This document shows positions 7,183-27,663 of a stretch of DNA of 32,000 nt, one piece after another. This stretch comes from Dickeya solani IPO 2222. GTDB lineage: Bacteria > Pseudomonadota > Gammaproteobacteria > Enterobacterales > Enterobacteriaceae. Made by a program: the position numbers and the translations under genes. Each line of letters opens with the position of its first letter. Positions within the stretch are counted from its first letter, which is position 1. The stretch covers positions 4,560,001 to 4,592,000 of the forward strand of contig NZ_CP015137.1 in NCBI RefSeq assembly GCF_001644705.1. Direction: 5' to 3'. The notes under the pieces are model-generated. The model had not been told where the DNA came from. It made no database searches and saw nothing but the letters and a program-made list of their open reading frames with translations.

Positions 7183-7227
7183 TTGACAGTTCAGGAATGT
7201 CAATGCAAAACTATACCGTACAGTTTA
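7183..7227 (+). promoter_or_regulatory. Candidate sigma70 promoter with overlapping 16-bp palindromic operator (copy 1)
   Basis: TTGACA at 7183-7188, then an 18-nt spacer to the -10-like AAAACT. The palindrome TATACCGTACAGTTTA lies at 7212-7227. The block AAACTATACCGTACAGTTTAGTTA matches the block at 12058-12081 (minus strand) in 22 of 24 positions. TTGACA-N9-TGTCAA (7183-7203) is itself an inverted repeat. Confidence 0.5.
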
Positions 7228-7365: not shown

Positions 7366-8031
7366 ATGAAAGCATTCGCACGGGCCGCCCAGCCAGCCAT
7401 CGTGGCTCTGACCCTCTTTTTGGCCGGTTGTTCTGGTAACCAGCAACCCTTACGCTACACCGGTATTGGATCATCAGCCCAGTTGACCCCTAACAGCGGT
7501 GATGCATCCGACCGAATCCCCTTCAAGTACGCCGCCCCGGTTGACTGGAAAAAATACAACAGCGTTATCATTGAGCCCGTCGTGGTGTATTCAGGCAGCG
7601 ACAATCAGTTTGGCGACCTGTCCACGTCTGACAGGCAACGACTTGCCGCCTATATGCAAACAAAGTTCGAAGAGGCGCTGCGCCCGCGTTTCAGACAGGC
7701 GACAGCATCCGCGCCGGACGCTTTACGTCTGAAACTGACGCTTACCGGTGCAGAAACCACCACGCAGGTCGTGGGAACATTCACCAAGTTCGATCTTGCC
7801 GGCGGGCCTTACAACATCGTGCAATCTATCCGCGGCAAAGAAGGCATGTTCAGCGGATCGGTGAGTTATGCTGTCGAGATCTACGACTCTACTTCCAACC
7901 GCTTGCTTCATGCCTATGTCGCCAGGCAATACCCGAACGCCATGAACGTTTCTGCCACCATTGGCTCGTTGAGCGCGGCAGAAGTCGGGCTCGATAAAGG
8001 TGCGGACGAACTGGCCGGCATACTGAAATAA
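7366..8031 (+). CDS. Putative lipoprotein (possibly DUF3313 family)
   Basis: A 221-aa ORF. The signal peptide has the lipobox MKAFARAAQPAIVALTLFLAGC|SGN. The family assignment is from memory of similar ~220-aa lipoproteins only and is not verified. Confidence 0.7.
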   Translation: MKAFARAAQPAIVALTLFLAGCSGNQQPLRYTGIGSSAQLTPNSGDASDRIPFKYAAPVDWKKYNSVIIEPVVVYSGSDNQFGDLSTSDRQRLAAYMQTKFEEALRPRFRQATASAPDALRLKLTLTGAETTTQVVGTFTKFDLAGGPYNIVQSIRGKEGMFSGSVSYAVEIYDSTSNRLLHAYVARQYPNAMNVSATIGSLSAAEVGLDKGADELAGILK

Positions 8032-8110
8032 GGTATCCCGTTGACCGACAGCATCGCCCGTGACGTGTTCCCGCAGGCGCCCCGCGGTTATGCCGGTGAA
8101 TGTTAAAAAC

Positions 8111-8148
8111 AACAGATAATCGAAAGCCGGTTATCTGTTTCACCTTTT
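8111..8148 (+). terminator. Strong hairpin (terminator or attenuator) between the lipoprotein gene and the pqiA-like gene
   Basis: AACAGATAATCG (8111-8122) pairs with CGGTTATCTGTT (8128-8139), a 12-bp stem with one G-T pair and a 5-nt loop. TCACCTTTT follows, so the T-run is offset by 5 nt. Confidence 0.5.
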
Positions 8149-8175
8149 AAATCTTGCTGAGTCTTGTCCGCCGAG

Positions 8176-8805
8176 ATGAAAAGCTACCCGTATTTGATCG
8201 CTTGTCCACACTGTGGTTGCGTGTATCGCCTCCGCCCCCTGGTCGGCAACGATGTGGCGCAGTGTGGGCGTTGCCTGACCATTCTCTATCGTTCCTCGTC
8301 GATGAGTCCGGCACGTTTGCTCCCTCTGGCCTGTGCTTCTGCCATCACCTTTTGGATGGCCAATACCTGGCCTGTCATGACGGTGAGTTTTCATGGACTA
8401 ACGCATGACGTGACGCTCTGGCAATCCATGTGGTCGCTTGCTCAGGACGATACCTTCTTTCTGGCGTGGTGTGCGGTGCTGTTTCTCATTCTTGCTCCTT
8501 CATTACAAATCATGCTGTTAACCTGGATTTTGTTGTTCGTAAGCGCCCGCCGGCGGGCGCCGGGCTTTATCGCCATCATGAAAACGCTGAGGTGGCTGCG
8601 CCCCTGGAACATGATGGAAGTGGGTCTGCCTGGTTTTCTGGTCGCGGCGGTGAAATTGTCCGGTCTGCTGGATGTCTCTGTCGAGCCCGGAGGGTGGTTT
8701 CTGGTTGCCTCATTGGTGCTGGTTCTGATCATTACCCGTCAGGATAATCATTGGCTGTGGTCGCTTGACTCGGCTGTTCACCGCGGAAGGACGCATCATG
8801 CATAA
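8176..8805 (+). CDS. PqiA-family integral membrane protein, half-size (first of a split pair)
   Basis: N-terminal zinc-ribbon-like CPHCGCVYRL...CGRC is followed by hydrophobic segments, as in each half of E. coli PqiA. The start is uncertain (TTG 8164 or ATG 8176). Confidence 0.8.
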   Translation: MKSYPYLIACPHCGCVYRLRPLVGNDVAQCGRCLTILYRSSSMSPARLLPLACASAITFWMANTWPVMTVSFHGLTHDVTLWQSMWSLAQDDTFFLAWCAVLFLILAPSLQIMLLTWILLFVSARRRAPGFIAIMKTLRWLRPWNMMEVGLPGFLVAAVKLSGLLDVSVEPGGWFLVASLVLVLIITRQDNHWLWSLDSAVHRGRTHHA

Positions 8806-9418
8806 GGCGCCTTCGGCCCGGCAGATGAATGTCTGCGATTGCCCGGTTTGCGGTCTGGTTTGCGATGTGCCGGCGGCGAATGACAGCGCGGCCCGTTGCC
8901 CGCGTTGCTATACCCGACTTGATGCGCGTTTCCCGAGAGGTACCGCTTTGTCGTGGGCTTTGCTGCTTGCAGCCCTGATTTTTTATATTCCAGCCAATAC
9001 CCTGCCGGTGATGTACACCAGCCAGATCGCCAGCGGCGGTGAAAGCACGATTATGACTGGCGTTGTCGACTTCTGGCAGCACGGTTCGTATGGCATTGCC
9101 CTGATCATATTTATTGCCAGCGTCGTCATTCCTTGCATGAAATTCCTGTCCCTAATGATCCTGCTGGTCACCGCCCGTCGGAAAAGCGCATGGGCAAGAC
9201 GCGAACGAACCCAGCTCTATCGCATAACGGAATGGATCGGCCGCTGGTCCATGCTGGATGTGATTGTCGTTGCGGTGGTGTGCAGCCTGATTCGTTTTCA
9301 TACGCTGGGCGAAGCGGAACCCCGCCCCGGCATCCTGTTTTTTGGACTGGTGGTTATCCTGACCATGCTCTCCGCCATGAGTTTCGACCCGCGTTCGATC
9401 TGGGAGGATGAGCAATGA
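8798..9418 (+). CDS. PqiA-family integral membrane protein, half-size (second of a split pair)
   Basis: CPVCGLVCDV...CPRC plus hydrophobic segments. I chose ATG 8798 because GGAAGGA lies 6 nt upstream. It overlaps the upstream stop by 8 nt (ATGCATAA, 8798-8805). Confidence 0.8.
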   Translation: MHKAPSARQMNVCDCPVCGLVCDVPAANDSAARCPRCYTRLDARFPRGTALSWALLLAALIFYIPANTLPVMYTSQIASGGESTIMTGVVDFWQHGSYGIALIIFIASVVIPCMKFLSLMILLVTARRKSAWARRERTQLYRITEWIGRWSMLDVIVVAVVCSLIRFHTLGEAEPRPGILFFGLVVILTMLSAMSFDPRSIWEDEQ

Positions 9419-11115
9419 ATCCGATGTTACCGGGTGAGATCACCGCCATTCGCCGCCACTGGCGTCATGCGTTTATCTGGCTCGTCCCGGTTATCGCGCT
9501 GGCGATCAGCCTCGCCATGCTGGTTCAGTCTCGCCTGTCCGCCGGGCCTGACATCACCCTTTCCTTTCGCAGTGCGACGGGGCTTGAAGCCGGCAAAACC
9601 ACGGTCAAATACAAAGACGTCACGGTCGGCGTGGTAAAAGATATCGTTATTAACGATGACGGTTCCCGTGTTCTGGTCAGGGTTCAACTGAACAAAAACG
9701 CAGAAAATCTGGCGCGCAGCGGCTCACGGTTTTGGGTCGTCAGGCCACGCGTGGGGATGAGCGGCGTCAGCGGCATTGATACCCTGTTGTCCGGCGCCTA
9801 TATCGGTGTGGATAAAGGCTATTCATCGGAAACCCGGCGCGAGTTTACCGGTCTGGAAACCCCGCCCGCCATTATCAATGACATGCCTGGGAGCCACTTT
9901 GTCATTGACGCCGACGACTTGGGGTCGTTGGATATCGGCTCGCCGGTTTACTACCGCCGGGTGCAGGTCGGACGTCTTGCCTCTTATCATCTGAAAGAAG
10001 ACGGCCGTGGCGTCAGTTTGCAGGTTTTCATTGATGCGCCTTATGACCGACTGGTGCAGCCTGACACCCGTTTCTGGAATGTCAGCGGTGTCGACTTATC
10101 CGTCGGCGCCAACGGCTTTCGCCTGAAAACGCAGACTGTAGCCGCGGTGCTGGCCGGCGGCATCGCGTTTGCCGCACCGGAAAGTAATACGGAAGACAAT
10201 ACGGAAAGCAATAAAGATAGCCATAAAACGCCGGCTATTAACCCTCCTGTCAGCTACCGACTGGCGCAGGATCAGGAATCCGCCATGTCGGCGCCGGATG
10301 GGCAGGCGATTCCATTCCGGCTTCGGTTTGAGCGAGCGTTGCATGGGCTGGACGTCGGCGCGCCGGTAGAGTTTTCCAGTGTCACCATCGGTCGGGTCAC
10401 GGCTATCTCGCTGGACTATAATCCCACTGGCTATCGTTTCCCGACGATAGTGGATGTTGAGGTATACCCCGCTCGTTTGGGGAATTTGCTGGATAAACTG
10501 CCCGGTTCATCGCCATCTGAACCCCCTTCTCCTGCAGAAACAGTCAACAAAGCCGCCCAATTCACCCGCGACCTTGTCGCCCACGGGCTACGGGCCCAGG
10601 CGGTTCCCGGCAACCTGTTAACCGGGCAGTTGTATGTTTCATTCGATTTTGTGCCTGATGCCCCCAACGTCCTCTTTAATCCAAACACCCGCCCCATCGA
10701 ATTACCGACCGTCAGCGGCGGGCTGGATAAACTGCAGGCGCAATTGGGCAGTATCGTCGCCAAAGTTAACAACATGCCGCTGGAGTCCATCGGCAACAAC
10801 CTGAACAACACCCTGGTTGAGCTGAGCAAGACGTTGCGTCTGGTCAATAACCAGACATTGCCGACCGCCAACAGCCTGATGAAACAAACGCAACTGACGA
10901 CGGAAAACGCTCAGGAACTGATCGCGGAAGACTCGCCATTGCTGATTCATTTCACCCAAACGTTGCAGGAGACCAGCCGGACGCTACGTACCCTGCGGGA
11001 GTTTACGGAACAGCTGGAGCGTAACCCGGAGTCGCTGCTGCGCGGACGCTCATCGGACTCGGCCCTGGACACAGCGGATGGCCATCCTGCTTCCCCAAAA
11101 GGAAAACAGCCATGA
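9415..11115 (+). CDS. PqiB-like multi-MCE-domain protein
   Basis: 566 aa. N-terminal TM segment FIWLVPVIALAISLAMLV. Three MCE-type repeats (GLEAGKTTVKYKDVTVGVV, LDIGSPVYYRRVQVGRL, GLDVGAPVEFSSVTIGRV) and a long helical C-terminus. Architecture and size resemble E. coli PqiB. ATGA overlap with the upstream gene at 9415-9418. Confidence 0.88.
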   Translation: MNPMLPGEITAIRRHWRHAFIWLVPVIALAISLAMLVQSRLSAGPDITLSFRSATGLEAGKTTVKYKDVTVGVVKDIVINDDGSRVLVRVQLNKNAENLARSGSRFWVVRPRVGMSGVSGIDTLLSGAYIGVDKGYSSETRREFTGLETPPAIINDMPGSHFVIDADDLGSLDIGSPVYYRRVQVGRLASYHLKEDGRGVSLQVFIDAPYDRLVQPDTRFWNVSGVDLSVGANGFRLKTQTVAAVLAGGIAFAAPESNTEDNTESNKDSHKTPAINPPVSYRLAQDQESAMSAPDGQAIPFRLRFERALHGLDVGAPVEFSSVTIGRVTAISLDYNPTGYRFPTIVDVEVYPARLGNLLDKLPGSSPSEPPSPAETVNKAAQFTRDLVAHGLRAQAVPGNLLTGQLYVSFDFVPDAPNVLFNPNTRPIELPTVSGGLDKLQAQLGSIVAKVNNMPLESIGNNLNNTLVELSKTLRLVNNQTLPTANSLMKQTQLTTENAQELIAEDSPLLIHFTQTLQETSRTLRTLREFTEQLERNPESLLRGRSSDSALDTADGHPASPKGKQP

Positions 11116-11717
11116 GATTGATATTACCGCTGCTGTCTGTCATCACGGTGCTGACGCTACCGGCCTGCCGTTCCCCGCAGGTTCGCTACCATACGCTGGT
11201 TCCCCCTGCCGCCGGGGCGGTATACCCGCACCCGACGCCATTCGCGATTGATTTATTACCGGTCGATGTACCGGCACAGGTGGACAGACAGCAGGTGGTG
11301 ATTCGCACCGGTCAGGATAGTGCCATGATCCTTGACAGCGATCGTTGGCTGAGTCCGCTGAGCGATGAGATTCATACGGCGCTATCATCACTGCTGGTCC
11401 AGCGCTCGGGCGCCCAAAATGCGTCGGGGCAGCCCCTGCCGCGCGATATTCCTGTGTTGCGGATCCGCATGCAGATTCGGCGTTTTGACAGTTGGCCCGG
11501 CCAGTTCGTCTCACTCGACGCCGACTGGAGCCTGACCGTAAAAAATGGAGATAAACACCTCAAACTGTCTTGCCGCAGTCAGTTGACTGAACGCGCCGCC
11601 GGAGATAACGCGCGGCTGTTTTCTGCCTGGCAGACGATTATTGAGCGAGTCGCGACACAGATGACGGAAACCGCCCGGCAATGGCAACAACATGGGAACA
11701 TGGCGTGTCAATCGTGA
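11112..11717 (+). CDS. PqiC/YmbA-like lipoprotein (ABC-type transport auxiliary component, DUF330)
   Basis: Signal peptide with lipobox VLTLPAC|RSPQVRYHTL, the Cys followed by the xxYYxL-type motif of this family. 201 aa. ATGA overlap with the pqiB-like stop at 11112-11115. Confidence 0.8.
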   Translation: MRLILPLLSVITVLTLPACRSPQVRYHTLVPPAAGAVYPHPTPFAIDLLPVDVPAQVDRQQVVIRTGQDSAMILDSDRWLSPLSDEIHTALSSLLVQRSGAQNASGQPLPRDIPVLRIRMQIRRFDSWPGQFVSLDADWSLTVKNGDKHLKLSCRSQLTERAAGDNARLFSAWQTIIERVATQMTETARQWQQHGNMACQS

Positions 11718-11796: not shown

Positions 11797-11835
11797 GCCA
11801 GAGCCAGCTCGGTCACCCGGTCTGGCTCCTTTTCA
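11797..11835 (+). terminator. Possible terminator after the pqi-like operon
   Basis: GAGCCAG (11801-11807) can pair with CTGGCTC (11822-11828). Alternatively AGCCAGA can pair with TCTGGCT. CTTTTC follows. The stem is short and the loop long. Confidence 0.35.
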
Positions 11836-11852: not shown

Positions 11853-11933
11853 CTAAATATGACTGCCGATAGACAGACAACCGTTCAGGATCATAGCGGC
11901 CATGATGATACAAACCAGCCCAATAATTCTCAT
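11853..11933 (-). CDS. Mini-ORF 2: 26-aa hydrophobic peptide with lipobox-like ILNGC
   Basis: ATG 11933-11931 is preceded by GAGGA 6 nt upstream. Product MRIIGLVCIIMAAMILNGCLSIGSHI, stop TAG 11855-11853. It is a paralogue of mini-ORF 1 and falls below the ORF-track size cutoff. Confidence 0.5.
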   Translation of the reverse strand: MRIIGLVCIIMAAMILNGCLSIGSHI

Positions 11934-11971
11934 GTTTTTTCCTCACTCACAACCGAATAAGATGGATTCCC

Positions 11972-12043
11972 CTAGAACAGGGAGACACAGCCGGTCAGCA
12001 TACAGACAGCCGCAGCAAATCCTGCCAACGCCAGAATTTTCAT
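11972..12043 (-). CDS. Mini-ORF 1: 23-aa hydrophobic peptide with canonical lipobox LTGC
   Basis: ATG 12043-12041 is preceded by GAGGAA 6 nt upstream. Product MKILALAGFAAAVCMLTGCVSLF, stop TAG 11974-11972. It lies directly downstream of the promoter/operator at 12062-12104. Confidence 0.55.
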   Translation of the reverse strand: MKILALAGFAAAVCMLTGCVSLF

Positions 12044-12061
12044 ACTCTATTCCTCAATAAT

Positions 12062-12104
12062 TAAACTGTACGGTTTAGTTTATATAAAGAAAAAACACTG
12101 TCAA
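12062..12104 (-). promoter_or_regulatory. Candidate sigma70 promoter with overlapping 16-bp palindromic operator (copy 2)
   Basis: On the minus strand: TTGACA (12104-12099), a 16-nt spacer, then TAAACT as the -10-like hexamer. The palindrome lies at 12062-12077 (plus strand TAAACTGTACGGTTTA, 14 of 16 self-complementary). The mini-ORF 1 ATG is 19 nt beyond the palindrome. Confidence 0.55.
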
Positions 12105-12254: not shown

Positions 12255-12881
12255 TCATTTGCCTGCCTGAGGGGATGCCCCATGCAGGAAAAGCTGGACG
12301 CCGTTTCTCACCATGTCGTTGATACGGGCGGTCGAATAATCAGGCAGTTCACGCTGCAATAGCACCGCATCCGCTTCTGCTTTAACCAGCGATGTGAACT
12401 GCATGGCTCTCAGCATCGGATCAGACGGAGCCAGTTCGCCTGTTTTCATGGCGTCGGCCATGAGATCGGCCAGCCTGGCCATGCTTTCTTTCGGCCCTGA
12501 TCCCTGAAACAAGGCACCGATATCTGAGTGACCCGCCTCGCCAACCACAATACGATAAATTTGCAATGCCGGGTTCCCGCCGGTCAGAACATGCATCATT
12601 TTTTCACCAAAACGCGTCAGCTTGTTCTCCAGAGAACGCTGCCCGTCTTCCGGTACGTCGAGCTCCGCCGCTGCTTCCGTCAAAAAACGCGTACTGTAGG
12701 TGCGCACAACCGTCTCAAACAACGCTTCTTTTGAAGGAAAATAGTTATAGAGCGTCGCCTTTGACCCCCCTGCACGCTTAGCCACTTCATTCATGGACGC
12801 CCGTTCGTATCCCGTTTCCTGAAACAATTGGGCGGCGGCATCGATAATGGCCTGCCGTTTTTCCTCAGTCAGTGTTCGCAT
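12255..12881 (-). CDS. TetR/AcrR-family transcriptional regulator
   Basis: 208 aa. The N-terminal HTH region KRQAIIDAAAQLFQETGYERASMNEVAKRAGGSKATLYNYFPSKEALF is a textbook TetR_N domain. Confidence 0.9.
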   Translation of the reverse strand: MRTLTEEKRQAIIDAAAQLFQETGYERASMNEVAKRAGGSKATLYNYFPSKEALFETVVRTYSTRFLTEAAAELDVPEDGQRSLENKLTRFGEKMMHVLTGGNPALQIYRIVVGEAGHSDIGALFQGSGPKESMARLADLMADAMKTGELAPSDPMLRAMQFTSLVKAEADAVLLQRELPDYSTARINDMVRNGVQLFLHGASPQAGK

Positions 12882-12937
12882 TACTCCTCCTCTGGCACCT
12901 GTCCGGGATCATTCAGTCGGCATTATTTTTAGGTAAC

Positions 12938-12953
12938 CGGACAGTACAGTTTA
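12938..12953 (-). promoter_or_regulatory. Third, weaker copy of the palindrome upstream of the TetR gene (candidate autoregulatory operator)
   Basis: The plus strand reads CGGACAGTACAGTTTA. The minus strand reads CATAAT-TAAACTGTACTGTCCG. One half-site and the GTAC centre are perfect and the other half is degenerate. It lies 57-72 nt upstream of the TetR start codon. Confidence 0.4.
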
Positions 12954-13322
12954 ATTATGCCGCAGTATGCCACATTTCAGCGATCCAAGAAACCGAGCGG
13001 TATTCGCTATCCCCCTTCTGTGTAAGTCGAATGTCGATCACAGCTCGTTCAGCAGTTAAAATTGTACATTTGTATTAAATTAGACATTTAATTACTAAAA
13101 TGTCATTTATATTGGGTTTTATCAGAATTAAATTCCAACTATAAAATAATAAATGTTTTTTTTATCCAAAAGTTCATTCTGTTTTTTTGAGCAAGACTGT
13201 CAAATCCACGCTATTCTCTTCTTGCTGCCAGTAAGGATACGATGCAGGCCAGATTACGGAACGCCCGATACCGCCCGCTTTCATCGCGGGCTGGCGTTCC
13301 CGCTGACGCCCGGAGAGGAACC

Positions 13323-13883
13323 ATGAGATCGAAAAGCGAAATCACCACAGAACAATTGATACGCAGCGCAGCGGCCATCATTCAGCGTGATGGTCTGCAT
13401 GCCTGTACTCACCGGGCAGTAGCTGAAGAAGCGCAGATGTCGTTGGGCGCCACCACCTACCACTTTAAAACGCTGGATGACCTGCTGGTCGCGGTGATGC
13501 ACCAGGCGATTGAAAACTTTTCACTCAGCACCCGGCATTGGCTTTCTCTGCAGGGAACCGACGATCCCGCCGGGATCCTGACCGATTTCGTATTCTGGAC
13601 TATCGGCGAGCGCTCAAGGCTGACTCGCGAGTACGAACTGTTTGTCGCCGCGGTTTCCCGCCCTTTTCTGCGGCCGCACGCTGCCGAGTGGCTACATGCT
13701 CACGAAACAATATTGGGCGAACATTTCGGTTTCAGCCACACGGTGTCGCAAGCGGCGGTATCGTTCACCGACGCCTGGCTGATGCGCGGCATTCTGAGCG
13801 GCGTCGATGACTTGCCGGATGCGGGTGTGATTCGGGCAGCTTTTCACGCCATCGTCACCAACAGGTCCGCTATCGGTCCTTAA
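13323..13883 (+). CDS. TetR-family transcriptional regulator (second)
   Basis: I placed the start at ATG 13323 (GGAGAGGA upstream) rather than the ORF-track start 13242. TTEQLIRSAAAIIQRDGLHACTHRAVAEEAQMSLGATTYHFKTLDDLL is a TetR_N HTH. Confidence 0.85.
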   Translation: MRSKSEITTEQLIRSAAAIIQRDGLHACTHRAVAEEAQMSLGATTYHFKTLDDLLVAVMHQAIENFSLSTRHWLSLQGTDDPAGILTDFVFWTIGERSRLTREYELFVAAVSRPFLRPHAAEWLHAHETILGEHFGFSHTVSQAAVSFTDAWLMRGILSGVDDLPDAGVIRAAFHAIVTNRSAIGP

Positions 13884-14011
13884 AACACGCCTGTGCGGGT
13901 CATGGTCACTCGCACCCATTGAAACTGAAACGACATGTATTCCTCCGGGGCGGCACACTCCCCCGGCAGGCATGGCTTTGCCGGTAATAAACGACCGGCG
14001 AAAACTGGAGC

Positions 14012-14045
14012 AGTACCTACACGGGAAAAGTACCTACACGTAACC
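14012..14045 (+). repeat. Tandem 17-bp duplication just upstream of the binding-protein gene
   Basis: AGTACCTACACGGGAAA (14012-14028) is followed by AGTACCTACACGTAACC (14029-14045). The first 12 nt are identical. The repeat ends 12 nt before the ATG at 14058. Confidence 0.8.
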
Positions 14046-14057
14046 AAGGACTATCGT

Positions 14058-15179
14058 ATGAAGAATGTGAATAACGCGATGAAGGCAGCCGGGCTGATGC
14101 TGGCTCTCGCGGGAAGCACGGCGGCCTTTGCCGGGAATGCCGTCGCCACGCCGGAACAGCGATCGCTGGACCAAATTTACCAGAGCGCGCTGAGAGAAGG
14201 CGGTGTGGTCACGGTCTACGCCGGCGGCGACACCGCGGGCCAGCAGGATGGCATCAAGCAAGCGTTCGAAAAGCGCTTTCCGGGCATGACACTGAATGTT
14301 GTCGTGGATTACAGCAAATTTCACGATGCCCGCATCGACAACCAGCTGGCTACCGACAGCCTGATTCCGGACGTCGTTCAGCTACAGACGTTGCAGGATT
14401 ATCCGCGCTGGAAAAAGGAAGGCGTGCTGCTGAACTACAAGCCTGCGGGCTGGGACAAGATCTGGCCGACATTTCGGGATCAGGACGGTGCCTGGACCGG
14501 TATTTTCGTCGATGCGTTCAGTAATGTGGTCAACACCAAGTTGATCGATCAGAAAGCCTGGCCGCGTGAAGCCAATGATTACCTGCGCCCTGACCTGAAA
14601 GGGAAAATCGTTGTCACCTACCCGAACGACGACGATGCCGTGCTGTTCTGGTTCAAACAGGTGGTGGATAAATACGGCTGGGATTATGTGGCGAAGTTCA
14701 GCGAACAAGAGCCGGTTTACGTGCGTGGTACTCAGGCGCCGGCGGACGATGTGGAAAGCGGCAAGTCCGCGGTAACCTTCTCCACTGACGGCGCGCTGGT
14801 TCCTGACGCCAAAGCCAATTCCCGCTTTGTGCTGCCGACGCAAGATCCATTTGTCGCCTGGGCGCAGCGCGCGGCAATCTTCAAACAGGCCAAACACCCA
14901 GAATCCGCCAGGCTGTATCTGAGCTGGCTGCTGGATCCGAAAACCCAGACCGACGTCTGGTATATGTGGTCGGTTCGCACCGATGTAGCGCCGCCGGCCG
15001 GTTACAAGCACATCTGGGAATACAAGAACACCAGTCCGGAAGCCTTCGAGCGTTTCATGAGTGACCGGGCGGCAGTCGAACGCTTCAGAGCGCAGATCGG
15101 TTTGTATCTGGGCGAAGTTAAAGGTGAACCGTCGCCGGGCTGGCTCGGCCTTCACCCAGAACAGGCGCTGCCGCACTAA
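14058..15179 (+). CDS. Periplasmic ABC-transporter substrate-binding protein (solute-binding family 1 type), orphan
   Basis: Start at ATG 14058 with AAGGA upstream. Signal peptide MKNVNNAMKAAGLMLALAGSTAAFA. Length is about 373 aa. The general SBP pattern is present (VVTVYAGGD..., DVVQLQ, FVDAFSNVVN). No permease or ATPase gene is adjacent, and I do not recognise the ligand class. Confidence 0.7.
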   Translation: MKNVNNAMKAAGLMLALAGSTAAFAGNAVATPEQRSLDQIYQSALREGGVVTVYAGGDTAGQQDGIKQAFEKRFPGMTLNVVVDYSKFHDARIDNQLATDSLIPDVVQLQTLQDYPRWKKEGVLLNYKPAGWDKIWPTFRDQDGAWTGIFVDAFSNVVNTKLIDQKAWPREANDYLRPDLKGKIVVTYPNDDDAVLFWFKQVVDKYGWDYVAKFSEQEPVYVRGTQAPADDVESGKSAVTFSTDGALVPDAKANSRFVLPTQDPFVAWAQRAAIFKQAKHPESARLYLSWLLDPKTQTDVWYMWSVRTDVAPPAGYKHIWEYKNTSPEAFERFMSDRAAVERFRAQIGLYLGEVKGEPSPGWLGLHPEQALPH

Positions 15180-15228
15180 GTTATCCGCCACGTCACACGT
15201 GAGTGTATGACATACCGCTCATTTGCCA

Positions 15229-15260
15229 GGGATTCCGATGTGTCACGGAATCCCTTTTTT
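15229..15260 (+). terminator. Rho-independent terminator after the binding-protein gene
   Basis: GGGATTCCG (15229-15237), an 8-nt loop, CGGAATCCC (15246-15254), then TTTTTT (15255-15260). Confidence 0.85.
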
Positions 15261-15435
15261 ATCTCGCTGAAATACTATTCCTGTCCGCAAGCTGCACCCC
15301 ATCGCGATTCACATCACTTTATGTTTTCTGATGTTATCCAGAATTTCGGCGCGGTCACGTCCGGATGAACATAACCGACTACACTATGATTACACGGCAT
15401 TTTTCCTGATTCTAACCACTCACCGGGATGTGCAC

Positions 15436-17304
15436 ATGACACATACGCAGCAAGAAAAATCACCAGGTTTGCTGGCTATTTCCGCTCTGGGCATTGTATT
15501 TGGCGATATCGGTACCAGCCCGCTTTATACCTTCAACACCGTGATACAACTGGCCGGCGACGCCGCCCGGCCGGAAACCATACTGGGCCTGCTTTCCACC
15601 TTGTTCTGGACGTTGATCATCGTCACCTCGATCAAATACGCGTTGTTCGCCATGCGGATCGACAACAAAGGCGAAGGCGGCGTGCTGGCATTGATGTCGC
15701 TGTTGCAGAATAACCAGGCCAAACGTCAAAAATGGATTATTGCCGCCGGGTTGCTGGGTGCGGCCTTTATCTATGGCGACGGTGCGATTACGCCAGCGAT
15801 CTCGGTGTTGTCAGCGCTGGAAGGGCTGGAGCTGGTTTTGCCGGAAACCGCCAATTACATCCTGCCGCTGACGATAGTTCTGCTGGTTCTTATTTTCGCC
15901 ATTCAGCCGTTGGGCACGGCAAAAATCAGTCAGTTTTTCGCACCGGTGATGCTGCTGTGGTTTGCTACGCTGGCTCTGCTGGGTATCAGGAGCATCATTA
16001 ATTATCCGACCGTACTCTGGGCGCTCAACCCCGTTCATGCGCTGACATTTTTCGCCACTCACGGACACATCGCCCTGCTGATTCTGGGCGGCGTATTCCT
16101 GTGCGTCACCGGGGCGGAAGCGCTGTATGCGGATATGGGGCATTTTGGCCGTAAGCCCATCTGGATTGCCTGGTATGCGGTAGCGCTCCCTTGCCTGCTG
16201 CTCAATTATGCCGGTCAGGCGGCATTTATCTTATCCGGCACCGACGCCAACAATAATATTCTCTACCGGCTGTGTCCCCCTGAGTGGCAAATACCGCTGG
16301 TGATTCTCGCCACGTTAGCCACCATCATTGCCAGTCAGGCCATTATCTCCGGCGCGTTTTCCATGACGCGGCAGGCGATTCAGCTTGGCTGGCTACCCAG
16401 AATGAAAATCACCCAAACAGCGGAGCAAAGCTATGGCCAAATCTATCTGGGTACCGTCAACTGGCTTTTGATGGCGGTCACGCTCAGTCTGGTCATTTTC
16501 TTCCAGTCGTCGGAGCGGTTGGCTGCCGCCTATGGTATTGCCGTTTCCATCACGATGCTGATGACAACGCTGTTGCTGTATATCGCAATGCGTAAGATTT
16601 GGCGCTGGAACAAGATGTTGAGCCTCAGCATCACCGCCATTTTTATTCTGATCGATGTGGGATTCTGCGTCGCCAATATGCTGAAAGTATTCGACGGCGG
16701 CTATGTTCCTTTGCTGCTGGCGATGCTGATTTTCTGCGTGATGTTTATCTGGCGTCGGGGTGTGACGCGCGTATCGCAGACCGTGGCGGAAAAAACGCTG
16801 CCGGTAGACGAGTTTCTCTCATCGCTACAGGCTGATGGCATTTCGCGCGTACCCGGCGTCGCCGTATTTTTGACCCGGGTGCAGAATGTCGCGCCGCCGG
16901 TGATGCGCTGGCATGTCAAACGTAACCAAGCCTTGCATGACAAGATCATCGCCCTGACCATTCAGGTGCTGGATGTGCCACGCGTCAGGGAGGAAGACAA
17001 ACTGGTGCTGACCGAAAAACTTCCCGGTTTCTGGCAAGGCGTGGCCTACTACGGATTTATGGAGAAGCCCAATATTCCCGAGCTGCTCAGGCAAACGCCG
17101 CCGCTGAAAGCCTGTGCCGATCACGAATCCGTAACCTATTACATCGGCCATGAATCGATCGTCGCCAAAGACAGTGCGGACGCGCTACCGCGCTGGCAAT
17201 CCTACCTGTTCGCCTGGATGATGCGAAACTGCCTGCATGTCACGGAATACTACCAGTTGCCGGGTAATCAGGTGATTGAGATCGGTCGACGTATCGCTAT
17301 CTAG
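15436..17304 (+). CDS. kup: Kup potassium uptake protein (KUP/HAK/KT family)
   Basis: From ATG 15436 the product is 622 aa, the same length as E. coli Kup as I recall it. The N-terminal LAISALGIVFGDIGTSPLYT is the family signature. It has a 12-TM-like hydrophobic core plus a soluble C-terminal domain. Confidence 0.92.
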   Translation: MTHTQQEKSPGLLAISALGIVFGDIGTSPLYTFNTVIQLAGDAARPETILGLLSTLFWTLIIVTSIKYALFAMRIDNKGEGGVLALMSLLQNNQAKRQKWIIAAGLLGAAFIYGDGAITPAISVLSALEGLELVLPETANYILPLTIVLLVLIFAIQPLGTAKISQFFAPVMLLWFATLALLGIRSIINYPTVLWALNPVHALTFFATHGHIALLILGGVFLCVTGAEALYADMGHFGRKPIWIAWYAVALPCLLLNYAGQAAFILSGTDANNNILYRLCPPEWQIPLVILATLATIIASQAIISGAFSMTRQAIQLGWLPRMKITQTAEQSYGQIYLGTVNWLLMAVTLSLVIFFQSSERLAAAYGIAVSITMLMTTLLLYIAMRKIWRWNKMLSLSITAIFILIDVGFCVANMLKVFDGGYVPLLLAMLIFCVMFIWRRGVTRVSQTVAEKTLPVDEFLSSLQADGISRVPGVAVFLTRVQNVAPPVMRWHVKRNQALHDKIIALTIQVLDVPRVREEDKLVLTEKLPGFWQGVAYYGFMEKPNIPELLRQTPPLKACADHESVTYYIGHESIVAKDSADALPRWQSYLFAWMMRNCLHVTEYYQLPGNQVIEIGRRIAI

Positions 17305-17588: not shown

Positions 17589-19064
<1,476 letters not shown>

Positions 19065-19413
19065 TTAAATTTTTAGATAAAGAACACCTCTGCCAATCTA
19101 ATGACATATTTTTCAGCATATAAGCTTGATGATATTTAACACAGACAAACAGCACCGTCACTGGTGCTAATTATTTATATAAGCCACTGTAATGTTTTTG
19201 TAAAGAAGAGTTAATCAATTTTCCATTTATTGAGGATTTAAACCACCGCTTCGATACAAAGCTAATTGATTAAAATGAAATAAGTTATTTGAATGGCGGA
19301 AAATAGGAAAAGAAACCGATTGCTTTTTAAACCAGTTTTTTGCGAGAGGGTTTAAATACACGCGAAATAATTTCAAGAATAAATTCTACCCTTATGCAGA
19401 ACTGAATATTAAA

Positions 19414-19434
19414 CAGGGCAGATAAACTGCCCTG
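19414..19434 (-). terminator. Terminator hairpin after prtC
   Basis: CAGGGCAG (19414-19421), a 5-nt loop, CTGCCCTG (19427-19434). On the minus strand TTTAATATT follows. Confidence 0.65.
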
Positions 19435-19455
19435 AGCAATATTCTTAGAATATCA

Positions 19456-20928
<1,473 letters not shown>

Positions 20929-20974
20929 TCACCCTTTATTCAGGACGAGCAATGCCCTGCCAGAATGACATGAT

Positions 20975-21000
20975 AATAAGATTCCCGTGGAAATCTTATT
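20975..21000. promoter_or_regulatory. Perfect 9-bp inverted repeat upstream of prtC
   Basis: AATAAGATT (20975-20983), 8 nt, AATCTTATT (20992-21000). It directly abuts the prtB terminator hairpin and lies 80-105 nt upstream of the prtC ATG. Confidence 0.3.
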
Positions 21001-21027
21001 AAACAGGATGGTTAACCCACCCTGTTT
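21001..21027 (-). terminator. Terminator hairpin after prtB
   Basis: AAACAGGATGG..TTAA..CCCACCCTGTTT forms an imperfect stem (AAACAGG pairs with CCTGTTT, TGG with CCA). On the minus strand AATAAGATTT follows. Confidence 0.55.
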
Positions 21028-21045
21028 AATATTTTCAGTGGTTGA

Positions 21046-22518
<1,473 letters not shown>

Positions 22519-22612
22519 TTACTGTCAGAATGCCTTTTTTCGCCATTAAGTCGCCGACAATTATCACCACGGCTAATTTAATGACATACCCATCCCTCGC
22601 AGCAGGCTGCGA

Positions 22613-22705
22613 AAGAAATTTCGTGGAAACTGCAATCAATTTTTATAAAGGGCACCATCAATTTTTGTAGAGAACACCATCAATTTTCGTAGAAACTACA
22701 ATCAA
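22613..22705. repeat. Four tandem 22-bp direct repeats plus a partial fifth in the prtF-prtB spacer
   Basis: R1 22613-22634 AAGAAATTTCGTGGAAACTGCA. R2 22635-22656 ATCAATTTTTATAAAGGGCACC. R3 22657-22678 ATCAATTTTTGTAGAGAACACC. R4 22679-22700 ATCAATTTTCGTAGAAACTACA. Then ATCAA again at 22701. Pairwise matches counted by hand: R2/R3 18 of 22, R3/R4 17 of 22, R1/R4 17 of 22. Confidence 0.85.
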
Positions 22706-22724
22706 CTAACGCAAACGGTTACCG

Positions 22725-24113
22725 TTAATTCGCTTTATTGCCGGTGGTCATATTAATTCCGTTTTTATTTATTGAATGCGCAGATTGAAACCAGGCAGCC
22801 AATTGCATCATATCCTGCTCATTCAGCGTACCGGCGGTATAGCGCAAATTCAGCCAGGCCTGTAACCAGCGATATTTGACTTCCGTCAGTTCGCGGCGGG
22901 CGTTATACCACTCCTGCTCCGCCATCAGCACGTCCAGATTGATGCGTTCGCCGCCGGCGACGCTCTGCCGCGTGGCGCGGATCGCTTCCTCAGCGGCGGT
23001 AACGCTCATCTGCCAGGCCCGGATTTTGGCGGCCCCGTTAGTGCACAGGTTGAACTGACGACGCAATTCCGCAAAGGTCTGCCGGGTCTGGTTATCCAGC
23101 TCCGCCTGACTTTGCTGGTATTCCGCCGCGGCCTGACGCATCGACGCCGAAACCGCACCGCCGGAATACAGCGGCACGCGCACCTGCAGGCCAACGGTCT
23201 GGGTGTCGTATTTCTGGTTGTAGTTAAATTCAGACTCCGACAGGCTGTTGCGGGTGGATGCCACCAAATCCAATGTCGGCAGGTGGCCGGCGCGGTTACG
23301 CTCAATTTCGTAGCGGCTGTAATCGACATTTTCACGCTGCACCGCCAGCTTTGCATTATGCCGCACCGTCAGTTCGCGCCATTGCGACAGCGAACGATTT
23401 TCGGTGACGTTATCCGGCAACGTGTCCAGCGCCAGCGGCGACAGATCTTGAATTTGCAGTGGCGAACCCATCATGTTTTCCAGATCGGTCATGGCGGCAT
23501 CCAGCGTATCTTCCTGTTCGATACGCTGGGCTTCAATGACGGTGTAACGCGCCTCCGTTTCCCGCAGGTCGGTTTGCGTGCCTTCCCCCGCCGCCAATAA
23601 GCGACGGTTCAACGCCAGTTGCTCCTGATAGGCTCGGCGCTGCGCATCCAGCAGCATCAGTTTTTCCTGCGCCAGCAATGCCTCGCTCCAGGACTGGTAC
23701 AAACGCACCATCAGGTCCTGACTGCGATCGCGAAATCGCTGATCGGCCATCAGTTTGCGGGTGACGCCCTGCTGGTAGCGCGCCCAGGCGGCATAGTCCA
23801 GCAGCGGCTGACGCAGCGTCAACGTCGATACGTAGTTATCGTAGTCACGTTTAGTCGTGTTATTTAGCGTCCGGTCCCGTTGGGTTACCTTGGAGTGGCT
23901 GTAATTGGCGCCATAGCTGTATTGCAGCGACGGCAGTAATCCGGCGCGGCCGATCGCCACTTCTTCCTGCCCGGCGTCTCGTTCGAAACTCGCCGCTCGC
24001 AGCTGTGCGTCATTGCGCAGCGCCAGTTCCCATGCATCCAGTAGCCCCATCGCCTGGGCGCCGCCGCCCGACAGAGATAACACCACCGTCAGTAATACCG
24101 CTTTCCTTCGCAT
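22725..24113 (-). CDS. prtF: Type I secretion outer-membrane factor PrtF (TolC family)
   Basis: 462 aa. Signal peptide MRRKAVLLTVVLSLSGGGAQA, followed by TolC-like repeats (LLDAWELALRND..., two OEP-type halves). It lies immediately downstream of prtE. Confidence 0.9.
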   Translation of the reverse strand: MRRKAVLLTVVLSLSGGGAQAMGLLDAWELALRNDAQLRAASFERDAGQEEVAIGRAGLLPSLQYSYGANYSHSKVTQRDRTLNNTTKRDYDNYVSTLTLRQPLLDYAAWARYQQGVTRKLMADQRFRDRSQDLMVRLYQSWSEALLAQEKLMLLDAQRRAYQEQLALNRRLLAAGEGTQTDLRETEARYTVIEAQRIEQEDTLDAAMTDLENMMGSPLQIQDLSPLALDTLPDNVTENRSLSQWRELTVRHNAKLAVQRENVDYSRYEIERNRAGHLPTLDLVASTRNSLSESEFNYNQKYDTQTVGLQVRVPLYSGGAVSASMRQAAAEYQQSQAELDNQTRQTFAELRRQFNLCTNGAAKIRAWQMSVTAAEEAIRATRQSVAGGERINLDVLMAEQEWYNARRELTEVKYRWLQAWLNLRYTAGTLNEQDMMQLAAWFQSAHSINKNGINMTTGNKAN

Positions 24114-24125
24114 TGCTTCCTTCCG

Positions 24126-25472
24126 TTACTCTTCCGTCAACGCCAGATGCATGCGATCCATCAGGGGTTTAAACAGATAATTGATAAACGAACGCTCCCC
24201 GGTGCGGACAAAACCTTGCACCGGCATACCGGGTTTAATTTCCAACCCGTGCAGAGAACGCTTGCCTTCTTCGCTGACCTGAATGCGCAAACCGTAGTAC
24301 GGCGTGCCGTCCTTTTCGTCCACCAGCCGGTCAGCGGAAAGCAGGGTCACCGTTCCCGGCACTCGCGGCGTGGTGCTTTGGCTAAACGCGGTGAATTGCA
24401 GTTCCACCGGCAGCCCGGACCACACCTTATCCACCATTTCTACCGGAATACGGCCATCCACCAGCAGCGGCTGGTCTTCGGGAACGATCTCCATCATGAC
24501 CTGCCCGGGGCCGATCACCCCACCTTCGGTGAAGATCTTCATGTCCACCACGGTGCCGGCAACCGGTGCACGGACCTGCACGTTGGCCAGATTGAAATCC
24601 GCCTTCTCGCGCTGGCTGATCACTTCATTCAGCTTGGCCTGCACGTCAGACAATTCGCTGTTGACCTCTTTGTCGTATTCCTGCTGGCGCTGAGCGATGC
24701 GCAATTTCTGCTGCTGAATATCACGCCGGGTTCGCCCTACTTCGCCGCTGGTCTGGGCCAGTTCGCCGCTGACCTGCGCAAACAACCGTTCCGTTTCCAG
24801 CATCTTATTGCGCGGAACATAGTTATCCGCCGCCAGCGGCCGCAGCCCCTGCAACTGCTGGCTCAACGTCGCCTGCTCGGACTGTTTGCTGCTCATCACC
24901 TTTTGCAATGCGCCAAGCGACGTCTCCAGGCCATCGATACTGGCGCGCACCCCGTCCGTTTCCAGCTTTAGCGACTGCTGACGACTACGCAACAGATCTT
25001 CCTGCAACGCGATGATAGCGGCCATTTCCGGCCGCTGACGCGCCTGAACCAGCCGCGGCGTCGCCGCCAGCGACGATTGATCGCGCTGTTCCGCCAGCAG
25101 TCGTGCTTCGCGGGCAATCAGTTGATCATATTGGGAACCCAACCCTTCGCTGGTGGTACGGGCGTCGACCGCATTCAGCGTCAGCAGCACCTGACCCGCG
25201 GCAACGCGGTCGCCGTCTTTCACCTGAATCCGGTCGACAATCCCGCCCTGCATGTGCTGGATCACCTTGCGATTGCCGGACACCACCACATTGCCTTGCA
25301 CCGCGACCCCTTTGTCCAGCGGCGCCAGCAACGCCCACAGCAGAAAACCGCCAAAACCGGCGAGCACCAGCCACCAGCCTAGCCGTAACGCCCGCTCTTC
25401 ATCCCGGCTGGCGCGATCGCGCATTGCCGCTTCGTTCAATTCATCCTGAGTGGTTATATCCATGCCTGTCAT
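24126..25472 (-). CDS. prtE: Type I secretion membrane fusion protein PrtE (HlyD family)
   Basis: 448 aa from ATG 25472. The ORF-track start 25475 is a GTG one codon upstream, and AGGGA lies 7 nt before the ATG. N-terminal TM segment LGWWLVLAGFGGFLLWALLAPL, a long coiled-coil middle, and a HlyD-type C-terminal barrel. Confidence 0.9.
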   Translation of the reverse strand: MTGMDITTQDELNEAAMRDRASRDEERALRLGWWLVLAGFGGFLLWALLAPLDKGVAVQGNVVVSGNRKVIQHMQGGIVDRIQVKDGDRVAAGQVLLTLNAVDARTTSEGLGSQYDQLIAREARLLAEQRDQSSLAATPRLVQARQRPEMAAIIALQEDLLRSRQQSLKLETDGVRASIDGLETSLGALQKVMSSKQSEQATLSQQLQGLRPLAADNYVPRNKMLETERLFAQVSGELAQTSGEVGRTRRDIQQQKLRIAQRQQEYDKEVNSELSDVQAKLNEVISQREKADFNLANVQVRAPVAGTVVDMKIFTEGGVIGPGQVMMEIVPEDQPLLVDGRIPVEMVDKVWSGLPVELQFTAFSQSTTPRVPGTVTLLSADRLVDEKDGTPYYGLRIQVSEEGKRSLHGLEIKPGMPVQGFVRTGERSFINYLFKPLMDRMHLALTEE

Positions 25473-25485
25473 CACGAGATCCCTG

Positions 25486-27213
25486 TCATTGCGGCATCGC
25501 GGCCGTGGGGTTCATCCGGGCCTGATTGGCGGCGCTGCGCTGTTGCAGTTCCGTCAGCACATCCCGCGCCAGTCCCATACGCTGCTGCTGGCCCTCATGG
25601 AGGATCAGAATTTTTTGCGCCAGCGTCGTCAACGCCGGGCGATGGGTGATCAACACCACGGTCGCGCCGCGTTTCTGCAATGCGACAATCGCCTGCATCA
25701 AGGCCTGATCGCCTTCGCTGTCAAGGCTGGCGTTCGGTTCATCCAGAATCAACAGGCAAGGATCACCGTACATAGCGCGCGCCAGACCGATACGCTGCCG
25801 CTGACCGCCGGATAAACCGCTGCCGCCCTCGCCCAATTCGGTGTCATAACCATTGGGCAGCGACAAAATCAGTTCATGCACCCCCGCCAGCTTTGCGGCC
25901 GCCACCACTTTTTCCGGATCGGCATCGCCAAAACGGGCAATGTTTTCCGCCAGCGTGCCCTTAAACAATTGCACATCCTGCGGCAAATAACCGATGGTCG
26001 GCCCAAACGTGTTTTTGTCCACCTGATTCAAATCAGCGCCATCCAAACGCACTTTGCCTTGTGTCGGCGCCTGCGCACCGACCAGCAAACGCGCCAGCGA
26101 GGATTTGCCGGACCCAGACGCGCCCAAAATCACCAGCGTTTCGCCAGCCTGCAACGAGAAATGAATGTTCTGCAATCGGGCGTTGCCCTGTGCCGGGCGC
26201 AGCGAAACCTGTTCCACGCCGAGATGCCCTTCCGGCGCAGGCAGCGCCATTGCCGCCGGCTGCGGCGGATAGGCGGCAATCAGCCGGGTCAGGCGCTGCC
26301 AGGCAATGCGCGCGCTGCTCCACTGTTTCCATACACCGATTAACTGATCGATCGGACTCAGTACCCGGCCGACCAGAATCGACCCGGCGATCATCATCCC
26401 CGGCGTGATCTTGCCGTCGATCGCCAGCAACGCCCCTAGTCCCAGCATCAGCGACTGCAACGCAATGCGACTGTACTTGGACGCGCCGCCCACGGCGGCT
26501 GCACGCTCGCTGGCCAAATTCTGCAGGGAAATAAAACGGTAGTGGCGCGCCAGCCAGCGCCGACGCAGGTTGCCCAGCATGCCCATCGCTTCAATGACGT
26601 CGGCATTACGTAACTGGGCGTCGGCCAGGTGGGTTGCCTGCTGTGATTGCTGATTGGCTTCCGCCAGCGGTTGATTGGTCAGTCGCTGGTTCAGCCAGGC
26701 CAGCGCCACCAGCACCACGGTGCCGCCCAACGCCAGCATCCCCAACCAGGGATGCAGCAAAAACAGCACCAGCAAAAACAGTGGAAACCAGGGCACGTCG
26801 AAGAAGGCAAACAGCGCATTGCCGGTGATGAACTGGCGCAGCAACGTCAGGTCGGTCAACGCCAGCCCGGCGCGGCTATCGCCAGCCTCCAGATTACGGG
26901 CAAACGCCGCATTGAAGACATCCTGATTGAGCGCCAGATCGATACGGGTGCCCAGCCTCACCACCAACAGACTACGAACCCACTCCAGCGCGCCCATAAA
27001 GGCACACAGTCCCGCCATCAGTAACGTCAGCATCAGCAGGGTGATACCGTTGCCGGACGCCAGCACCCGGTCATACACCTGCAGCATATATACCGAAGGC
27101 GCCAGCATCAGCACATTGATGACGGCGCTGAAAATCCCGACGCTCCAGAAACTGCGGCGGAACTGGCGCAGCACGCCGAACAACGAACGATCTCGCTCAG
27201 AGGAAGCATTCAC
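25486..27213 (-). CDS. prtD: Type I secretion ABC transporter PrtD
   Basis: 575 aa with a GTG start. N-terminal 6-TM domain. Walker [13 protein letters not shown] signature LSGGQRQR, Walker B LLILDEP. Confidence 0.92.
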
Positions 27214-27229
27214 GGCAGGGCTCTCTCCC

Positions 27230-27592: not shown

Positions 27593-27663
27593 GATATTCC
27601 CATCATTCGGTTATCAGTGAACGCGTTTAATAATTGAAACCATCTTGTTAAATACGAGGATAA

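Follow-up and report, generated by a model that had tools for sequence, protein, structure and literature searches.

Two conserved mini-ORFs beside a TetR-family gene in Dickeya solani resemble lipoprotein precursors of no described family

What, if anything, is encoded in the short stretch of the Dickeya solani chromosome that separates a TetR-family repressor gene from the end of a Pqi-like operon? The TetR protein encoded beside it is 100% identical to a D. solani protein, and in the D. solani chromosome CP051457.1, to which the locus maps, the interval from the TetR gene to pqiC has no called gene. In the 32,000-nucleotide (nt) segment of strain IPO 2222 that we analyzed (NZ_CP015137.1, positions 4,560,001 to 4,592,000; "the window", to whose own numbering coordinates refer unless another locus is named), this stretch contains two tandem open reading frames (ORFs) on the minus strand: mini-ORF A (12043..11972), encoding the 23-amino acid (aa) sequence MKILALAGFAAAVCMLTGCVSLF, and mini-ORF B (11933..11853), encoding the 26-aa sequence MRIIGLVCIIMAAMILNGCLSIGSHI, both of which end with a TAG stop codon. 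An original prediction, made from the DNA alone, had described a same-strand pair of this size with a 38-nt gap and with a Shine-Dalgarno (SD) sequence 6 nt from each ATG, and all of these features were confirmed: the SD of A is GAGGAA (12050..12055, minus strand), and the 38-nt spacer (11934..11971) contains the GAGGA of B (11944..11940). The pair lies downstream of the TetR gene (12255..12881, minus strand) and is convergent to the pqiC-like gene (11112..11717). Comparison with diverged relatives makes it very probable that A and B are real, translated and conserved genes under a TetR operator, and the peptides resemble lipoprotein precursors but belong to no described family.

Conservation and distribution of the two peptides

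To separate selection on the peptides from selection on the DNA, we relied on a codon analysis of nine pairs, all from loci retrieved with the TetR protein as an anchor, in which the C-terminal part of each peptide was defined as the last 8 codons of A or the last 11 of B, i.e., the lipobox and the predicted mature residues. Synonymous sites in this part are saturated (pS of 0.78 for A and 0.80 for B), and pN is 0.08 for A and 0.11 for B, while pN in the N-terminal part of A and B is 0.38-0.43. Third codon positions vary in 7 of the 8 C-terminal codons of A and in all 11 of B, and the residues kept there (Gly, Cys, Val, Ser, Leu and Phe in A; Gly, Cys, Leu, Ser, Ile, Gly, Ser and His in B) are each encoded by two to four different codons. 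Because synonymous sites are saturated and the amino acids are nevertheless kept, it is the peptides that are conserved, not the DNA for its own sake, and in each peptide the constraint bears mostly on the C-terminal third.

The pattern of length variation was likewise the opposite of that expected if the frames were broken or only the DNA were conserved. There are no insertions or deletions within the ORFs; they are confined to the spacer between A and B, the length of which differs between species (9 to 50 nt) and which in D. dianthicola contains a 12-nt tandem duplication (ATTCGGTTGTGA). Frames, starts, stop positions and, for the most part, SD-like sequences are retained in more than 20 diverged sequences, and in most of the nine TetR-anchored loci A follows a purine-rich, SD-like motif. 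When the four Dickeya-type sequences were aligned, the interval from the -35 hexamer to the operator (described below) was fully conserved save for a few spacer positions, and the DNA upstream of the promoter was poorly conserved. We also considered whether A and B might be 5'-end remnants of larger lipoprotein genes, and rejected this idea because stop positions are kept and purifying selection acts on the tails.

More than 25 diverged loci contain an intact pair. Those anchored on the TetR protein are from D. solani, D. dianthicola, D. chrysanthemi, Brenneria roseae, B. rubrifaciens, Pantoea coffeiphila, Gibbsiella quercinecans and Candidatus Sodalis endolongispinus, with Dickeya species added through protein look-ups; the list obtained with this anchor is a minimum, so that there are at least these loci. 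In pair-bearing loci, the TetR gene adjoins the pair (in B. rubrifaciens, the pair is upstream of the TetR gene), with the exception of one decaying locus, L104, which has no TetR gene. Independent support came from a scan of metagenomes with a degenerate DNA pattern for the C-terminus of B alone. Seventeen of its 22 matches are 26-codon B ORFs, and the pair is present in about 15 metagenome contigs; where enough flanking DNA was available, the B loci have an operator ~174 nt upstream, an A ORF ending in SGCVSLF-stop, a DUF3313 gene no more than ~1.5 kb away and, immediately upstream, a TetR gene. As A, the operator, the TetR gene and the DUF3313 gene lay outside the search pattern, their recovery supports the pair independently.

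The module has also reached plasmids. Two conjugative IncF-type Klebsiella pneumoniae plasmids from human samples, NZ_CP084857.1 (L089, 50073-60150) and NZ_CP141562.1, carry it in the D. solani arrangement, tetR-A-B-pqiC-pqiB-pqiA-pqiA-DUF3313, together with a second TetR gene and an adjacent IS110 transposase. RefSeq annotates nothing at the A or B site of the Klebsiella plasmid. The plasmids were found by peptide-level and Klebsiella-sequence searches only, as D. solani DNA gave no match to them, and Escherichia coli genomes contained the module in neither its D. solani nor its Klebsiella version. The pair is absent from D. undicola, Affinibrenneria, B. goodwinii, Raoultella, Kosakonia, Erwinia billingiae, a genome labelled D. 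zeae and B. populi; in pair-less loci the TetR gene is directly convergent to pqiC or to the DUF3313 gene, or is in a different context.

Two copies are in decay. In the Sodalis copy (L012, 4001-4900), a stop interrupts the TetR gene at codon 16 and the Cys of B is replaced by Tyr. In L104 (2290-2460), the TetR gene, the promoter and the start codon of A are all missing; the A remnant there shows the same Cys-to-Tyr change, and B has an Asp within the hydrophobic region. Cys-to-Tyr changes are confined to these two copies, and loss of the regulator seems to be followed by decay of the pair.

That such genes escaped annotation is attributable to the length cut-offs of gene finders, which would account for the absence of A and B from protein databases. 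An exact look-up of both peptides and of seven orthologous mini-peptides found none of them among ~15 billion proteins, and a concatenated A+B query returned no candidate among 5.8 billion protein clusters. Consistent with the original prediction, which had recognized no named family, Pfam and NCBIfam scans assigned neither peptide to a family, and the marginal matches were to the signal peptides of lipoprotein families only (at E <= 1 in Pfam, A has no match and B weakly matches only the signal peptide of PF24052). Neither peptide matches the entericidin profile PF08085, and no Pfam or NCBIfam profile of toxin families (e.g., Ibs_toxin) or of small membrane protein families (AcrZ, MgrB and similar) matches them. 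Rfam, at gathering or E-value thresholds, contains nothing relevant to the region. The peptide motifs were not found in the literature searched, and searches for small or shortest lipoproteins returned papers on plasma lipoproteins or nothing. A family that is conserved across genera is thus missing from a collection of 15 billion proteins, which illustrates a gap in annotation.

A palindrome shared with an envelope operon

If A and B are genes, how are they controlled? A sigma-70 promoter (12104..12077, minus strand) precedes A, with -35 hexamer TTGACA (12104..12099), a 16-nt spacer and -10 hexamer TAAACT (12082..12077), and it scores 10/12 in our promoter scan. Abutting the -10 hexamer is a 16-bp palindrome, TAAACCGTACAGTTTA (12077..12062), which is self-complementary at 14 of 16 positions and lies within a longer dyad, TAAACT-N9-AGTTTA. 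The query palindrome has two matches in the window versus 0.06 expected by chance, and the match at 12062..12077 contains one mismatch. At all pair-bearing loci the same order is found, TTGAC(A/T), ~17 nt, TAAAC and a palindrome centered on GTAC, the right half of which (GTACAGTTTA) is almost invariant. The distance from the end of the operator to the start of A is 15-27 nt at all loci except that of B. rubrifaciens (47 nt), which has a perfect 16-mer, TAAACCGTACGGTTTA; in a second lineage, the better dyad is TAAACTG-N7-CAGTTTA, the left arm of which is the -10 hexamer itself. The placement of the pair in the original prediction, convergent to the end of the Pqi-like operon and behind a palindrome-bearing promoter, was therefore correct.

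At the other end of the pair, between the convergent mini-ORF operon and the pqiC-like gene, is a GC-rich hairpin (11800..11829) that probably acts as a bidirectional terminator. Its predicted RNA fold has an energy of -27.7 kcal/mol, and its stem is kept in Dickeya. The hairpin downstream of B carries a U-tract in D. chrysanthemi and Sodalis and none in L096, and a strict terminator scan made no call for the minus-strand hairpin in D. solani. With promoter, operator, A, B and hairpin in succession, the pair appears to form a self-contained bicistronic operon.

The gene upstream of the pair (12255..12881) encodes a TetR-family repressor with TetR_N and TetR_C_7 domains (Pfam and NCBIfam) of the FrrA/NalC/AefR-like kind. 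Its closest solved relatives are FrrA of Bradyrhizobium (6g87, E = 8e-25), NalC and AefR; FrrA structure 6g8h is a co-crystal with a flavonoid. The kinship with FrrA and the plant-associated hosts suggest that the inducer may be a hydrophobic compound of plant type. The adjacent TetR protein would be the one to bind the palindrome. That this is a TetR-type operator, as originally proposed, gains weight from the retention of the palindrome beside orthologous TetR genes in many genera. A degenerate operator-like site, TAAACTGTACTGTCCGGTTA (12934..12953, minus strand), follows a -10-like element ('gcatact') in the region upstream of tetR in D. solani, and a good palindrome is present at the equivalent place in other genera, including Erwinia and Affinibrenneria (L006, L086 and L092), which suggests that tetR may be autoregulated.

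A second copy of the operator, TATACCGTACAGTTTA (7212..7227), is located in a TTGACA...AAAACT promoter ahead of a plus-strand operon spanning 7366..11717. By Pfam and NCBIfam assignments, this operon encodes a DUF3313 lipoprotein (7366-8031), a PqiA split into two single-domain genes (8164-8805 and 8765-9418), a PqiB-like MCE protein (9415-11115) and a PqiC-like lipoprotein (11112-11717). The presence of the same operator ahead of A-B and ahead of the DUF3313/Pqi-like operon points to one envelope regulon. Across Enterobacterales, operator-bearing promoters beside this TetR family precede DUF3313 lipoprotein genes and also the TetR genes, and DUF3313 is present in 45 of the TetR loci fetched, including that of B. 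roseae. The Dickeya locus is highly plastic: D. solani has DUF3313, pqi-like genes and A-B, and D. undicola (L085) has DUF3313 only. D. dianthicola (L083) and D. chrysanthemi (L084) have the TetR gene, A-B and DUF3313 without pqi-like genes. The emphasis of the original prediction on the Pqi-like operon as the neighborhood of the pair therefore needs one refinement: A-B is accompanied most consistently by the TetR and DUF3313 genes, and not by the pqi-like genes as such. DUF3313 has no relative in the Protein Data Bank by sequence or profile comparison, its single-sequence AlphaFold model has a pLDDT of 37.8, and in the literature searched it receives incidental mentions and no functional work.

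More distant relatives among Steroidobacteraceae and Rhodocyclaceae-type metagenome-assembled genomes (L056, L059, L063, L072 and L081) have the same TetR gene and a GTAC-centered palindrome. The target there, instead of DUF3313, is a gene for a putative outer-membrane efflux lipoprotein, so named by its N-terminal sequence alone. The palindrome in distant relatives with another target suggests that the regulator-operator pair is much older than its enterobacterial targets.

Beyond the TetR gene, the window contains a divergent group (13242-17304) comprising a second TetR-family gene (TetR_C_31), a gene for a solute-binding protein with a long N-terminal extension and a gene for a Kup-type potassium transporter. 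It is followed by the Dickeya prt (protease) cluster (17589-29222), with four genes for serralysin-type metalloproteases, one for an Inh inhibitor and three PrtDEF-type type I secretion genes (ABC transporter, HlyD-type and OEP-type).

Lipoprotein signature and alternative explanations

What kind of product do the conserved residues describe? Each peptide has a predicted 18-aa signal peptide, which would leave CVSLF as the mature part of A and CLSIGSHI as that of B. We tallied residues in 21 distinct A and 21 distinct B sequences, numbering from the Cys as +1. Position -3 is Leu in 20 A sequences (Ile in one) and in all 21 B sequences; position -2 is Ser or Thr in A and Ser, Thr, Asn or Ala in B; position -1 is Gly in every A and every B; and position +1 is Cys in all 21 A and in 20 B sequences (Tyr in one). 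The tail that follows is V-S-L-F in A (V-S-L-L once) and L-S-I-G-S-H-[IL] in B, with single exceptions. The resulting motifs, L-[ST]-G-C-V-S-L-F for A and L-x-G-C-L-S-I-G-S-H-[IL] for B, are near-invariant, and the comparative data strengthen the earlier view that A and B are paralogues bearing lipoboxes. We entertained the idea that the tails are class-I PDZ ligands (S-x-hydrophobic-COOH) and dropped it, since B. rubrifaciens (…SHLT), the Klebsiella plasmid (…GGHL) and a 54-aa variant of B that is described below do not have this motif.

We scored the same sequences with a rule of the PROSITE PS51257 type, {DERK}(6)-[LIVMFWSTAG](2)-[LIVMFYSTAGCQ]-[AGS]-C, with the Cys at 15-35 and a Lys or Arg in the first 7 residues. 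The pattern is passed by 20 of 21 A sequences, including that of D. solani, in agreement with the canonical lipobox first ascribed to it, and by 16 of 21 B sequences; the whole rule is passed by 20 A and 15 B, one further B having no Lys or Arg. The Cys is at position 19, 21 or 23, and all sequences but one have Lys or Arg among the first 7 residues. D. solani B fails the pattern at -2 only, and the failures that are not due to this position are a Cys at -4 (plasmid A) and the two decaying copies. A hydrophobic N-terminal two thirds that drifts, followed by an invariant lipobox and tail, is the arrangement expected of a cleavable lipoprotein signal peptide joined to a tiny functional mature part, and of the three readings originally offered for these peptides the lipoprotein one appears to fit best. 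Short substrates are not foreign to the enzymes involved: Lgt was originally assayed with a synthetic peptide corresponding to residues 1-24 of Lpp, and short synthetic lipopeptides have served in vitro assays of Lsp and Lnt (PMC8048626). We judge it somewhat more probable than otherwise, from these sequence patterns, that A and B are lipidated and cleaved. Neither peptide has an Asp at +2. Lipoproteins without Asp at +2 are transferred to the outer membrane in E. coli, and by this rule the same destination is predicted for A and B.

Several observations weigh against this interpretation. B of D. solani, D. dianthicola and L095 has Asn at -2 and fails the strict lipobox pattern, and each peptide as a whole has the hydrophobicity (21-24 residues) needed for an uncleaved transmembrane helix. 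We know of no mature lipoprotein this short, the smallest of which we are aware having roughly 20 or more residues. In Acerihabitans arboris (L011, 4771-5060), where the promoter and operator are the same and A is degenerate (MIFQITQLLLAPWER), the B variant is a 54-aa lipoprotein rich in His, Arg and Asp (WP_162364168.1), which is the only member of the family with a database entry and has no relatives among database proteins; it indicates that a free C-terminus at the exact place is not obligatory. In our tally among the matches listed, the pair is absent from ~30 of ~40 enterobacterial TetR loci, and absence from roughly three quarters of them implies that the pair is accessory and dispensable for the core regulon. 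The invariance of the B C-terminus among the metagenome matches was built into the search pattern. Recognition of loci by amino-acid motifs could miss divergent variants, and a motif-free search for small hydrophobic Cys-containing ORFs downstream of the TetR gene found no others.

The first of these observations lead directly to another explanation, that A and B stay uncleaved in the inner membrane as signal anchors, like single-pass small proteins of the AcrZ/MgrB/MgtS type, and that their C-terminal motif, at the periplasmic face, would modulate PqiA, for example, or another member of the regulon. Peptides of 23-26 aa that are almost wholly hydrophobic and have a positive N-terminus would suit such a role, as would the failure of Dickeya B at -2 of the strict lipobox and the co-regulation with membrane and envelope proteins. 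However, the transmembrane part is the least conserved portion of both peptides, with the pN of 0.38-0.43 noted above, and the constraint falls on the L-[ST]-G-C lipobox common to both paralogues and on the residues after it, a pattern typical of a cleavable signal peptide and not of a helix-packing interface. Moreover, no Pfam or NCBIfam small membrane protein family matches, and the pair occurs without a nearby pqiA in D. dianthicola, D. chrysanthemi and the second lineage. We therefore consider this explanation unlikely, though worth keeping in view. Much less credible is the other alternative in the original prediction, that the peptides resemble type I toxins (Ibs/ShoB-like) and damage the inner membrane. 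Small size, hydrophobicity and tandem duplication are what speak for it, but a simple scan found no promoter-like site on the plus strand within 11853-12043 from which an antisense RNA could be made, Rfam has no family in the region and Pfam no toxin match, both ORFs have a strong SD, and the operator is shared with an envelope operon. In addition, an operator that ends 15-27 nt ahead of the ATG (in B. rubrifaciens, 47 nt) implies a short leader and not a long structured one, and the conserved portion is the lipobox and tail, not the helix. Hence, of the two alternatives first proposed, the one of AcrZ/MgrB type keeps some standing on account of the hydrophobicity of the peptides, and the Ibs-like one is poorly supported and very improbable.

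The concentration of constraint on the last few residues while the leader drifts would also be expected of exported peptide or lipopeptide signals, in which the C-terminal 5-8 residues are released or displayed, are then sensed and could feed back on the adjacent regulator, in the manner of SHP/Rgg peptides or of the enterococcal pheromones, which derive from lipoprotein precursors; the position of short hydrophobic-peptide genes beside, and under the control of, a transcription factor fits this idea as well. TetR regulators, however, sense small molecules in the cytoplasm, the locus has no linked transporter for peptides and no linked processing protease, and in the known systems the active peptide either precedes the lipobox Cys or has no lipobox joined to it, making signals of this kind improbable here. 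Finally, that gene finders and RefSeq do not call the ORFs, and that the peptides are absent from protein databases, might suggest chance ORFs or an untranslated conserved RNA or DNA element. This notion is effectively refuted by the codon analysis, with its saturated synonymous sites and invariant amino acids, and by the frames, starts, stops and, mostly, SD-like sequences kept across the diverged sequences; its probability is negligible.

A proposed envelope response and its nearest relatives

We are left with a repressor-controlled pair of mini-prolipoproteins that takes part in an envelope response, a reading that we favor with modest confidence. From the sequence comparisons we infer the following scheme, which covers repression by the TetR protein, the kind of inducer, how the peptides are lipidated, cleaved and sorted, and what partner and physiological role they have. 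In uninduced cells, the FrrA/AefR-like repressor would occupy the palindrome abutting the -10 hexamer and block transcription of A-B. A ligand, probably a hydrophobic compound of plant type, would release the repressor, and its release would also open the DUF3313/Pqi-like MCE operon via the same operator. Each peptide would enter the inner membrane with its N-terminus inside, given the Lys or Arg at position 2; Lgt would then place a diacylglycerol on the invariant Cys, LspA would remove the signal peptide of 18-22 residues, and Lnt would add a third acyl chain. The predicted products are triacyl-Cys-Val-Ser-Leu-Phe and triacyl-Cys-Leu-Ser-Ile-Gly-Ser-His-Ile, which Lol transport would deliver to the outer membrane. 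There they may serve an accessory role in the envelope response under TetR control, and the invariant 4-7 residues would most likely be read by a specific partner, for which DUF3313 is the best candidate. We hold a role in the DUF3313/MCE envelope response only tentatively, at a little under even chances. More speculative still, and rather doubtful, is the possibility that the pair constitutes a ribosomal route to lipid-like molecules, i.e., natural Pam3Cys-type triacylated penta- and octapeptides that are made on demand under a repressor sensing a small molecule and that act, rather than as proteins, as specific ligands, cargo or membrane-modifying lipids for DUF3313/MCE, or as a lipopeptide signal.

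If they are lipidated, A and B would bring the lower size limit of bacterial lipoproteins down to mature parts of 5 and 8 residues, and they are probably the shortest bacterial lipoproteins yet seen. Cells would then encode "designer lipopeptides" in which a few residues are strongly selected, implying a specific reader protein. Triacyl-Cys lipopeptides are potent TLR2 agonists. The pair also offers a handle on two poorly understood things, the DUF3313 family and a Pqi-like MCE system with a split PqiA, and since one operator and one repressor would govern three units, a single tetR deletion should switch all of them on. The module occurs in important plant pathogens (D. solani, D. dianthicola and Brenneria) and on conjugative K. 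pneumoniae plasmids.

Despite the absence of a family match, A-B bears resemblance to several known systems. The entericidins EcnA and EcnB (PF08085) of Enterobacterales are products of tandem paralogous tiny lipoprotein genes in their own operon, with a lipobox after a short signal peptide; their precursors have 41-48 aa, their mature forms are amphipathic helices of ~21-27 aa, and they are regulated by EnvZ/OmpR and RpoS. A-B is likewise a tandem paralogous pair in its own operon, with a lipobox after a short signal peptide, but its mature parts would have 5 and 8 residues, there is no sequence similarity, and no toxin/antidote relationship is indicated. Bacteriocin-release and lysis lipoproteins are also among the nearest named things. 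AcrZ, MgrB and MgtS are similar to A and B in size, in having a single hydrophobic segment and in being co-regulated with envelope machinery, and differ in that no family match joins them to A and B, in which the constraint is on the lipobox and tail and not on a helix. The Ibs/Sib type I loci have tandem, very short hydrophobic peptides in common with A-B, whereas A-B has a predicted repressor control, no long structured leader and no family match, and simple scans found no antisense RNA gene. In regulation, the closest parallels are the NalC-ArmR and FrrA/AefR regulons, in which regulators of the same TetR subgroup control adjacent envelope or efflux genes through a palindromic operator. NalC even controls a small-peptide gene, armR, the product of which is a 53-aa soluble cytoplasmic anti-repressor; the targets here are instead two lipobox peptides and a DUF3313/MCE operon. 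In substrate size, A and B are approached by Lpp 1-24, a laboratory construct with which a signal peptide plus ~4 residues proved enough for Lgt in vitro (PMC8048626). As for the products, the predicted A and B lipopeptides would be natural triacyl-Cys counterparts of FSL-1 and Pam3CSK4-type lipopeptides, with precursors that are gene-encoded, conserved and, by their operator, apparently regulated.

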